30,048 bases of DNA from Patescibacteria group bacterium (GTDB taxonomy: Bacteria; Patescibacteriota; Microgenomatia; UBA1406; GWC2-37-13), in the NCBI GenBank assembly GCA_040881235.1, contig JBBEDP010000040.1, positions 1 through 30,048 on the forward strand, written 5' to 3'. The translations under genes were made by a program, and so were the position numbers. The notes under the pieces are model-generated. The model searched no databases, was not told the origin of the DNA, and saw nothing but the letters and a program-made list of their open reading frames with translations. This document shows, one piece after another, positions 26,242-28,652 of this stretch. Position 1 is the stretch's first letter, and each line of letters opens with the position of its first letter.

Positions 26242-27063
26242 ATGCTAAGAATAAAAATCCCTTTTGATAAAAATAAAATAATTAACTCATTCTTAAAGAT
26301 TAAAAAACGGCTGAGATTTGTAATCAGTACATTACTACTTAGCGCTCTTATGCTTTTTTCAACCTTTTTTCTTTTTGATAAAGCGTGGGTATTTATTCCA
26401 ATTCTTGGACTAGCAGCATATGCGTTTACATACTTTTCAATAATAGAAGGGATTAAAAAGTCAGAGTGGCTAACTCTTTTTATACTTCCTGTTTTTTTTA
26501 CGATATCTTTTTACCTTTTTTACTTTTTATTTCCTGTGAGGTGGCTTACTAGGCTCCCTTTTGTGTTAATTTATGGAGTATCAATTTACGCTATGTTTTT
26601 GACCTCAAATATATTGAATGTTGGAGTAGAGAAGAGTCTCCAATTATACAGGGCGGCATATTCAGTAAATTACTTTTATCAAACTGTAATTGTGTTTTTG
26701 TTTTCTAATATTTTATTCTCATTTAAAATTAATTATTTAGTAAATGCTTTGGGGTTGGGGATTGTAGTGTTTCCTTTGGCAGTTCAGCTACTATGGAGTA
26801 TAAAACTCGATATTGTATTGGAAAAGACCCTATATCTATACGCAATTCTTATAAGCATGATTATTGCGCAAATTGCTTTAATAGCCTCATTTTTGCCTCT
26901 CACAGCCTCTATATCAGCTCTTTTAGTCACATCCTCATACTATTGCCTATCAGGTTTAATAAATGCTTATTTGGACAATAGGCTTTTTAAACAGACAATA
27001 AGGGAATATTTATTTGTGTGGCTATTTGTAATTATTACAGCTACGCTTACAATAGGATTTTAA
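26242..27063 (+). CDS. Conserved-looking multi-pass membrane protein of unknown function
   Basis: 273 aa with about 8-9 hydrophobic helices, LFILPVFFT and SLQLYRAA motifs; operonic with yebC. Confidence 0.7.
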   Translation: MLRIKIPFDKNKIINSFLKIKKRLRFVISTLLLSALMLFSTFFLFDKAWVFIPILGLAAYAFTYFSIIEGIKKSEWLTLFILPVFFTISFYLFYFLFPVRWLTRLPFVLIYGVSIYAMFLTSNILNVGVEKSLQLYRAAYSVNYFYQTVIVFLFSNILFSFKINYLVNALGLGIVVFPLAVQLLWSIKLDIVLEKTLYLYAILISMIIAQIALIASFLPLTASISALLVTSSYYCLSGLINAYLDNRLFKQTIREYLFVWLFVIITATLTIGF

Positions 27064-27243
27064 TGGGATACGTAGAAAGTGGAGGAGAGGGGAAGGTAAA
27101 ATTATAAAATTATTCATAAGTGACGGACGTGAATAATAGACCTATAGTCTAATTTAATTAAAACTATAGGGTATTAACTGAAGCTAAAAAAAGAATATTT
27201 AATTTAATTGTAGCCATGCTTAATGCGCAAGCCAAATATAATA

Positions 27244-27455
27244 TTTAGACTATTACTACGCTCTAAAGTTAGTTCCATCAATTTTACCGCATGTGGATAA
27301 CATTATAAAATAGCCTCAATATTATCAATTTAGACTATTACAACAGTCTAAATTAAGCCAATATATAGAACTATATCATTTGCACTGGTATTTAAACATA
27401 AGTAGATAATAACTAGCTTTGAATTTGCTTATTTAGAACTATAGAAGGCTCTAAA
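27244..27455. repeat. Three TTTAGA-N12-TCTAAA palindromic sites
   Basis: 27244-27267, 27329-27352 and 27432-27455, all with a 12-nt spacer. Confidence 0.85.
27292..27300 (-). promoter_or_regulatory. Perfect DnaA box (TTATCCACA)
   Basis: TGTGGATAA on the + strand. The match is exact; function is unproven. Confidence 0.45.
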
Positions 27456-27662
27456 TTAAACGACACCAATGTGCGAGAGAATAGTGCTTTTACTACTTGT
27501 TTATTTATAGCGTTTTTAAAGGTTTACTTACAATATAAGTGATCTAATTTAAGTTTTAATAAGAAAGAGTGAGGACGAGTACACTCCCTTATATGTATAT
27601 ATGATCCAAATATGAAGTAAGGAAAAAATGAGAGACAAGCAGGTAAAGAGTAGAATTGATAA

Positions 27663-27692
27663 GACGTCGTAAATTGTATCTTTTACGACGTC
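27663..27692. repeat. Perfect 11-8-11 inverted repeat (dif/lox-like geometry or terminator hairpin)
   Basis: GACGTCGTAAA-TTGTATCT-TTTACGACGTC. Confidence 0.85.
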
Positions 27693-27902
27693 AAGCGTGC
27701 TCACTTCCAGAGAATAGTGTAAATTCTATATAAATCATTTTTTGTTATTTTACTTAATTCTTGTTTCTTTCTTCTTACTTCTACTCTTAATTATCTCCTT
27801 ATTTTCCCCTTTTCTCAGATTCCTCTCATTTTGCTTAAATCCCCCATTTTACATAATGAATTATCTTATTATGACAATCTAAATACGATTATCCCCCATT
27901 TT

Positions 27903-28652
27903 TCAGCCTCGGTTTCCGCCTTTTTGCCAATTTACTTTTTTAAAGAAAGGCTTATACATTGGATCTTTAAGTCCAACATGAAGTTTAGAAAGTTCGTCTT
28001 TGCCTGGATTTGCGTTTTTAAAATCTATGAAGTTTAAGCCTGAAGCTATAGCTATTGGTGTTTGTTCCGAGCCTTCACCCATAACTAAGACCGCAGCAGT
28101 TGCAAGTGCATCTGCAATATTTGAAGTTGATACTTCTAAAGTTCTACCGAATAAATCAGGTGTTCCAATATAGTTTTTCATAGCTAAGAAACCGCTGTGG
28201 GCTATAGCAACACCAATCGTACCCCAACGAAGTGGGATAATTCGACTGTCTGTAATAATGACTCCAACTTTATTAAGGTTGAACTTCTTTTTTAGGTAAT
28301 TTCGAAGCTTATTGGCTGTTTTTTGAGGGTTTTTAGGCCAAAGAGTATAGTAGCCAGCGCTATTTGACTCATCTATACCAGCTCCTGGAATTAAAATGTT
28401 ATTTTTCATAGTAAGTCCAAGAGAATTTTTCTTTAAGACTGATGGTATATACAGTTCGGCTTCTTGTTTAACAAGCTCGTTTTTATCAATGGTTCCGATT
28501 TTAACTACAGCGCCTTCACAAAGAGATACAATTTTAGAAGTAAAAACGATGACGGATTCTTCTTTAAGTGATTTTATGTATTTATCAATTAACTTAAAGA
28601 GCGTAATTTTTTTTGGAGTTATTATTTCTGTTTTAAGAGCAACAATTTTCAT
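27903..28652 (-). CDS. CofE-family gamma-glutamyl ligase (putative folate-metabolism type)
   Basis: TSKIVSLCEG, AGIDESN, GVIITDS, PLRWG, DLFGR and ADALATAAVLVMGEGSEQTP; ATGA-coupled to folC. Confidence 0.88.
   Translation of the reverse strand: MKIVALKTEIITPKKITLFKLIDKYIKSLKEESVIVFTSKIVSLCEGAVVKIGTIDKNELVKQEAELYIPSVLKKNSLGLTMKNNILIPGAGIDESNSAGYYTLWPKNPQKTANKLRNYLKKKFNLNKVGVIITDSRIIPLRWGTIGVAIAHSGFLAMKNYIGTPDLFGRTLEVSTSNIADALATAAVLVMGEGSEQTPIAIASGLNFIDFKNANPGKDELSKLHVGLKDPMYKPFFKKVNWQKGGNRG

Follow-up and report, generated by a model that had tools for sequence, protein, structure and literature searches.

A phased array of palindromic sites and a DnaA box beside a probable dif site in Patescibacteria

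An 839-bp gene-free gap in a genome of the Patescibacteria contains an array of 24-bp palindromes, one perfect DnaA box and a 28-bp core that is probably the chromosome dimer-resolution site, dif. The array is real, conserved and helically phased, and makes up one unit with the core and the DnaA box.

The gap and its palindromic sites

The window (the whole stretch of DNA analysed, 30,048 bp) is the largest contig, C40, of a 480-kb assembly in 108 contigs that is 77.6% complete and has a GC content of 30%. Its gene content, with DUF5656 in a tiny genome, suggests a bacterium of the CPR/Patescibacteria type. The gap extends from 27064 to 27902, and no tRNA genes were found in it. Its features, with those of its flanks, are as follows, the relative in the same genus being G001.

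ending at 27063, plus strand: yebC and DUF5656, the left flank of the gap, convergent with the right flank
27086-27096, plus strand: purine tract AGAGGGGAAGG, with a KOPS-like RGGGGAR at 27088, the last one aimed at the core from the left; kept in G001 and other genera
27141-27171, no strand: palindrome CCTATAG-N17-CTATAGG (inverted repeat I8), kept in G001 and in the same relative place in most genera
27243-27268, no strand: palindromic site 1 (ATTTAGACTATTACTACGCTCTAAAG), an exact match to the pattern, PWM score 27.7; the G001 orthologue is at the same offset, with half-sites kept and interior diverged
27292-27300, plus strand: perfect DnaA-box 9-mer TGTGGATAA (complement of TTATCCACA), between sites 1 and 2
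27328-27353, no strand: palindromic site 2 (ATTTAGACTATTACAACAGTCTAAAT), exact match and best copy, PWM score 30.3, the top match of the genome; blastn matches in other genera
27360-27379, no strand: block AATATATAGAACTATATCAT, identical between G000 and G001, with TATAGAACTATA at the same offset in G001
27431-27456, no strand: palindromic site 3 (ATTTAGAACTATAGAAGGCTCTAAAT), exact match, PWM score 17.7; the copy closest to the core, with 233 bp between starts
27664-27691, plus strand: 28-bp core ACGTCGTAAAT-TGTATC-TTTTACGACGT, the probable dif; unique in its own genome, arms invariant across the order
27802-27815, minus strand: pyrimidine tract TTTTCCCCTTTTCT, with a minus-strand RGGGGAR at 27804 that points back at the core; kept in G001
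27859-27884, no strand: degenerate site 4, with the right half AATCTAAAT kept, PWM score 14.7, around 195 bp beyond the core
starting at 27903, minus strand: CofE-like gene and folC, the right flank of the gap

In the same-genus relative, the CofE-like gene beside the locus is a pseudogene with seven in-frame stops (locus L010, G001:C31:17947-18621).

A sequence-only reading of the window had described full TTTAGA-N12-TCTAAA sites at 27244-27267, 27329-27352 and 27432-27455. These are correct, and the strings ATTTAGACTATTAC and GCTCTAAA that it claimed were shared between sites were both found, as were the perfect 28-mer AATTTAGACT-8-AGTCTAAATT at site 2 (27327-27354) and the repetition of TAGAACTATA at 27366 and 27434. 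All five of the starts that it gave for TCTAA-type right halves (27148, 27262, 27347, 27450 and 27543) are accurate, but two of these halves do not belong to the array: the first is part of the separate conserved palindrome CCTATAG..CTATAGG, whilst the last, which is not kept in the same-genus relative, is probably a chance match. Absent from its list was the fourth, degenerate site, which is a full site in relatives. The three exact copies belong to a single family of direct repeats, 85 and 103 bp apart, and compare with an expectation of 0.01 in the window; none of 100 shuffles reached three. The genome-wide scan that had been suggested as a check found the pattern only four times in the 480-kb assembly, and its reversed-pattern control not at all.

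A consensus for the site was built from the copies at the orthologous locus in relatives, using first 40 sites and then the 82 of alignment A2, giving a pooled consensus of ATTTAGAnTGTTATnACAnTCTAAAT. This describes a 24-bp palindrome composed of two 12-bp halves, TTTAGAnTRTTA and TAAYAnTCTAAA, rather than of a pair of hexamers around a free spacer. The T and A that flank it are strongly conserved, though they played no part in finding the sites. Orthologous copies keep their half-sites whilst the inner bases diverge. Variation in one half is nearly independent of that in the other: over the 11 potential pairs in each site, 75.4% of cells are paired, compared with 73.3% when partners are shuffled, and A-C mismatches are numerous. 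Hence the symmetry arises from each half fitting the consensus, and not from selection for base pairing.

These figures bear on whether the locus operates at the RNA level, as a structured non-coding RNA or as terminator or hairpin elements. Each perfect copy could fold as an 11-bp hairpin, and the purine (27082-27099) and pyrimidine (27799-27816) tracts at either end are complementary, with G-U pairs on the plus strand only. However, column composition accounts for the pairing within sites, the fold energies of the array are ordinary (z scores of -0.8 and -1.8), nothing credible was found in Rfam at the gathering threshold or at E values of up to 10, and there are no terminator-like sites. 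The two tracts are better explained as convergent KOPS-like motifs, and the 10-bp ladder of site spacings described below is a property of duplex DNA, all of which makes an RNA element highly improbable. The sequence-only reading had instead proposed sites for a dimeric protein, which fits the conservation of the half-sites, the independence of the halves, the helical phasing and the class-wide conservation at the orthologous locus. Although we infer the binding itself, the array very probably represents a set of sites for a dimeric, sequence-specific DNA-binding protein.

Conservation, phasing and further copies

The genome of the same-genus relative can be aligned from end to end of the gap (68% identity in the search), and has the array at the same offsets from the core with diverged site interiors. 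Pairwise alignment of G000 and G001 reveals footprint-like conserved islands, which comprise the sites, TTTTACCGCATGTGGATAAC, AATATATAGAACTATATCAT, the CCTATAG..CTATAGG palindrome and around 50 bp surrounding a perfect 11-8-11 palindrome. The same layout recurs in approximately 17 genera of the order, in the gap downstream of the DUF5656 orthologue: a purine tract is followed by the CCTATAG palindrome, a site, an exact copy of TGTGGATAA and two to six more sites, then by around 210 bp of unconserved sequence, the core ACGTCGTAAAT-TGTATC-TTTTACGACGT, the pyrimidine tract and, often, one further site at +184 to +207. Total gap length ranges from 468 to 1011 bp across loci. Two smaller elements are also present in the neighbourhood of the core. 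The direct repeat AGAGAATAGTG lies on either side of it (27476-27486 and 27709-27719 in the window), and is found around +45 from the core in relatives. Most genera additionally have a purine block resembling GGAGAAGTGG on the plus strand about 20 bp downstream of the core; this points away from dif, a direction for which the KOPS reading set out below does not account.

Beyond these genera, the array was found in six further families, and the relatives possessing it come from at least eight families in all. Allowing up to two mismatches, the core was recovered from 21 of the 201 class genomes sampled, seven other families being represented among them, and never more than once per genome. Palindromic sites accompany it in six of those seven families, and the DnaA box in some. 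Three loci have a recognisable core without a detectable array, and several have one site only; hence dif can exist without the array. In G203, an extra gene of 280 aa lies between DUF5656 and the array, yet the array, DnaA box, core and downstream site remain together. The motif is therefore kept at the orthologous locus across the class, above background, as the sequence-only reading requires.

The DnaA box is similarly well preserved: 16 of 17 order-level loci have an exact TGTGGATAA, which mostly precedes the next site by 38-54 bp, whilst its flanks are unconserved. Perfect boxes are rare, numbering five in the window's own genome and nine in the near-complete genome G006; the locus itself holds one, together with a box having one mismatch. 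A head-to-head pair of boxes (TGTGGAnAA-n-TTATCCACA) is found just upstream of dnaA both in the window's own genome (C88:9734-9752) and in G006 (C1:545771-545789), indicating that the lineage uses the canonical box.

Spacings between neighbouring sites are not continuous. The 52 measured cluster at 76-79 bp (21 cases), 85-89 bp (10), 95-98 bp (6), 101-109 bp (4) and 116-117 bp (3), forming a ladder of 77, 87, 97 and 107 bp, or 77.5 + 10n. A Rayleigh scan over all spacings peaks at a period of 9.5-10 bp (R of 0.58), and the spacings of 85 bp or more, taken by themselves, are in phase with 77.5 bp (R of 0.43, p of around 0.008); common ancestry among the loci means that the p-values for both phasing and core distance are overstated. 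The distance to the core is likewise constrained: of the 30 loci having the DUF5656 anchor and at least one site, 22 have their closest upstream site 213-257 bp from the core, even though the intervening DNA is unconserved in sequence. On the far side, a site is located at +184 to +207 in 10 of 34 loci, on a ladder of 185, 195 and 205 bp.

The motif is not restricted to this locus. In G006, TTAGA-N12-TCTAA has 17 matches, against one to four for other spacings from N8 to N17, and 17 of the 19 matches to the PWM are intergenic, although intergenic DNA makes up only 10% of the genome; the reversed control gave two. Outside the dif array, the copies occupy around 14 intergenic places, at 266-270, 432-437, 616-620, 947-948, 996, 1124 and 1161 kb, adjoining small genes without a Pfam match in divergent, convergent and tandem gaps. 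Hence the protein appears not to be dedicated to dif in every genome. Weaker copies are present in the window's own genome on C92, C76 and C83. In G055, five of eight matches to a relaxed pattern fall in the dif array; this pattern, TTTAG-N14-CTAAA, is too loose in that its counts equal those of the control, and genomes without an array at the dif locus show background only. In no genome examined is the motif clustered more densely than in the array beside dif.

On C92 of the window's own genome (467-930, locus L140) there is a second gene-free gap, upstream of a phosphoglucomutase-like gene, containing three weaker palindromes at 634, 766 and 926 along with CCTATAG-like motifs. At 616-620 kb in G006:C1 (locus L097), four sites (616770, 617586, 618627 and 619923) bracket single small genes lacking a Pfam match in a cassette-like arrangement. 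G006 also has perfect intergenic palindromes of another family, AGTCCAATCGATTAATCGATTGGACT and TGTACAATCGATTAATCGATTGTACA, at C1 positions 1062288, 1062819, 1135424, 1201495, 161901 and 223575, which are unrelated to the TTTAGA sites.

Such copies raise the question of whether the sites are ordinary transcription factor operators, serving promoters in the gap for a small RNA or peptide or for the flanking operons, and situated beside dif merely through conserved gene order. The motif does occur in further intergenic DNA, with some copies 8-110 bp ahead of a gene start, and it is also found upstream of the phosphoglucomutase-like gene on C92; DnaA boxes commonly regulate promoters; and the gap has 13 sigma-70-like matches where 5.6 are expected. 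These matches are all weak, however, and neither a conserved promoter nor a conserved ORF is present in the gap. Nor do the genes neighbouring the sites share a theme, and several sites lie in convergent gaps, where a promoter is not expected. An attempt to deduce a regulon from the genes beside other sites was unproductive, there being no Pfam theme, no shared homologues and no autoregulated candidate. Furthermore, three to six phased sites, with a spacer to the core that is conserved in length and free in sequence, exceed the needs of a simple operator, and in G055 the motif is almost confined to the dif locus. An operator role is consequently somewhat unlikely.

Replication polarity around the core

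For analysis of skew and polarity, a contig of 1,231,892 bp was assembled for G006. A de novo search of this sequence for k-mers skewed between the replichores recovered AGGGGA, GGGGAG and GAGAAG, which we take to resemble KOPS (GGGNAGGG) and SRS (GAGAAGGG). Cumulated along the contig, the strand bias of RGGGGAR is lowest at dnaA (547,648) and highest at 981,385-982,817, adjoining the core at 983,666; the strand ratio of AGGGGA is 25:3 ahead of the locus and 10:39 past it. In G008, where the locus is at C4:~124600, RGGGGAR is distributed 54:10 before and 4:7 after. The polarity of RGGGGAR thus rests on G006 and G008, the counts on the window's own contig being too low by themselves. Within the window, the purine and pyrimidine tracts are the last convergent RGGGGAR pair, and this convergence gives rise to the long-range inverted repeat I4.

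The genome to which the window belongs encodes the proteins that a dif site would be expected to need. C74 and C88 each carry a tyrosine recombinase of the Xer family, scoring below the XerC and XerD equivalog cut-offs in either case, and C18 carries the one FtsK. One Xer-like recombinase gene is around 2 kb from dnaA on C88. No canonical dif was found elsewhere in G006, there being nothing within seven mismatches of the E. coli consensus and one match with seven mismatches to that of B. subtilis. Taken with the polarity of the RGGGGAR motifs and the occurrence of the core once per genome, this points to the core probably being dif.

GC skew gives a different picture of the terminus. In G006, the skew minimum is at 540-560 kb, with dnaA at 546 kb, but the maximum is diffuse, at 1030-1180 kb, compared with 983.7 kb for the core. 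The probable dif is therefore off-centre, dividing the chromosome into replichore arms of 436 and 796 kb. There is no switch of skew at the locus in either G006 or G008, and the skew stays positive for tens to around 180 kb beyond it. A flattening of skew on the window's own contig had hinted that the locus was the terminus by this measure, which was not borne out in G006 or G008.

The same evidence bears on a replicative role, whether as a secondary or relic origin, a Ter- or RTP-like fork barrier or a DnaA-titrating or DnaA-reactivating locus of the datA or DARS kind. A perfect, invariant DnaA box lies within the array, the lineage has canonical boxes in front of dnaA, the core is followed by an AT-rich stretch of 60-80 bp, and skew flattens at the locus on the window's contig. 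Yet the minima of GC skew and of the polar motif both fall at dnaA in G006, and the absence of a sign switch in G006 and G008 implies that forks are neither launched nor trapped at dif. The locus has a single perfect DnaA box and no cluster of the oriC type, whilst iterons are normally direct repeats around 22 bp apart, not palindromes separated by 77-107 bp. An element of this sort is quite improbable.

Amongst the roles listed by the sequence-only reading, those of initiator site and RTP-type fork trap are accordingly disfavoured, the former by the position of the skew minimum at dnaA, away from the locus, and the latter by the lack of a skew switch. So too is that of partition site, as ParB is not conserved and canonical parS is absent. 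As a candidate, a ParB/parS centromere was rejected: the N-terminal domain of ParB is missing from G008, which is 99% complete, and from the window's own genome, ParB being patchy in its distribution; no canonical parS was found in G006 or in the window's genome; and the locus is far from the origin, unlike parS, which lies near it. The position of the array, flanking the dif core, favours the remaining two roles, of recombinase accessory sites and of terminus organiser.

With regard to the second of these, a protein bound to the array might tether dif to the division site or hold sister dif regions together until septation, in the manner of MatP on matS, leaving the chemistry of recombination untouched. 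The array is inside the last convergent pair of KOPS-like motifs and is the densest motif cluster in the genomes examined, and 3 of the 16 other G006 sites are less than 40 kb from dif. The others, however, are scattered round the chromosome, some of them close to the origin (432-620 kb), whereas matS is confined to Ter, and the fixed distances of 213-257 bp and around 195 bp from the core suggest direct cooperation with it. We regard a purely positional function as unlikely.

Proposed mechanism and known systems

The reading that we tentatively prefer is of a phased complex, assembled around dif by a dimeric protein, which would control or position Xer recombination. The dimer, or a higher-order form of it, would bind the 24-bp sites through their two-fold symmetry and oligomerise along one face of the DNA, wrapping or looping around 650 bp about dif. 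It is always the more variable, XerC-like arm of dif that faces the array, into which a single DnaA box is built; one more site lies around 195 bp past dif. Such a complex might govern when or how the two Xer recombinases act, either as an architectural accessory or as a 'lock' that is stripped by FtsK arriving along the converging KOPS-like motifs; alternatively, it may keep dif in place. A more elaborate and somewhat unlikely form of the proposal is an undescribed nucleoprotein machine in a class of CPR bacteria, in which a phased solenoid of the palindrome-binding protein and DnaA would enclose a near-symmetric, off-centre dif and gate Xer until FtsK strips the solenoid, coupling resolution, and perhaps decatenation, to replication status through DnaA.

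Several candidates for the binding protein were considered. YebC is a lead on the basis of synteny, together with the DNA binding reported for it elsewhere (PMC7584230). The other neighbour of the array, DUF5656, was rejected as a polytopic membrane protein without a DNA-binding region. PepA and ArgR were likewise rejected, Peptidase_M17 being found in two of five array genomes and the ArgR C-terminal domain in none of the five. Two genera have a PepA-type M17 aminopeptidase gene some 14 kb ahead of dif (G008:C4:110644-111594 and G013:C3:22546-23481), which was not found in G001 or G006. It was also considered whether the palindrome half-site is a relative of the dif arms, but by eye these agree at 6 of 10 positions at best, which is unconvincing.

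If the proposed reading is true, phased protein sites and a DnaA box around a chromosomal dif would represent a third way of controlling Xer recombination. In known systems, FtsK/KOPS control and control by accessory sequences are alternative strategies, and to our knowledge their combination is unprecedented. Textbook chromosomal dif sites are 'naked' 28-bp sequences controlled by FtsK, and we know of elaborate accessory DNA at Xer sites only in small plasmids. A literature search for dif in CPR or Patescibacteria, or for a chromosomal dif with accessory palindromes or DnaA boxes, found nothing, and no chromosomal dif with such a palindrome array is known to have been described before. Bacteria of the CPR have tiny genomes, often without the usual partition and terminus-organising proteins, and the locus, if correctly interpreted, would provide the first handle on chromosome segregation in its uncultured members. 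The core and array together are a marker with which to locate dif and orient replichores in CPR metagenome-assembled genomes, and the 24-mer is a defined bait for a new DNA-binding protein.

Of the systems with which the locus can be compared, cer of ColE1 and psi of pSC101 are the plasmid examples. Bound by PepA with ArgR or ArcA, they have protein-binding DNA beside the Xer core, on the side of the XerC arm, that is thought to wrap and to control recombination; the array described here similarly lies on the side of the more variable arm, around 210 bp from the core. The plasmid sites are FtsK-independent and selective for resolution, yielding products of fixed topology, and have around 180 bp abutting the core, whereas the present locus is chromosomal and flanked by KOPS-like polarity. 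It also differs in the make-up of its array, 250-500 bp of separate 24-bp palindromes, and in having one more site beyond the core.

The chromosomal systems of E. coli (XerCD/dif with FtsK and KOPS) and B. subtilis (CodV/RipX with dif and SRS) likewise have a 28-bp core of 11-6-11 structure, present once per chromosome, with a G-rich polar motif converging upon it, and two Xer paralogues and FtsK are encoded here as they are there. The centre of the core is TGTATC, compared with TGTATA in E. coli dif. Unlike those of either species, the arms are nearly perfectly palindromic and the site is off-centre with respect to GC skew; moreover, we know of no flanking palindrome array or DnaA box described for E. 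coli or B. subtilis dif.

Terminus-associated proteins offer a further parallel. MatP of E. coli, like the protein proposed here, is dimeric and binds short palindromes concentrated around dif. The matS site, however, is a 13-bp palindrome with 23 copies over around 800 kb and no phased local array, whilst here three to six copies fall within 300-500 bp, their distances from the core being fixed, and others lie far from dif. RTP/Ter of B. subtilis and Tus/Ter also involve protein sites in the terminus region, those of Bacillus being imperfect inverted repeats; by contrast, the present sites are symmetric where theirs are polar barriers, and the lack of a skew switch in G006 and G008 indicates that forks are not arrested.

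Finally, subsites II and III of Tn3-family res and the DR1 and DR2 sites of TnpI (the Tn4430 IRS) are also additional, non-recombining sites at fixed phasing beside a crossover site. These accessory sites impose topology and directionality on resolution, are bound by the recombinase itself and belong to whole sites of 110-130 bp, whereas the palindrome described here does not resemble the arms of the core and its array is several-fold larger.
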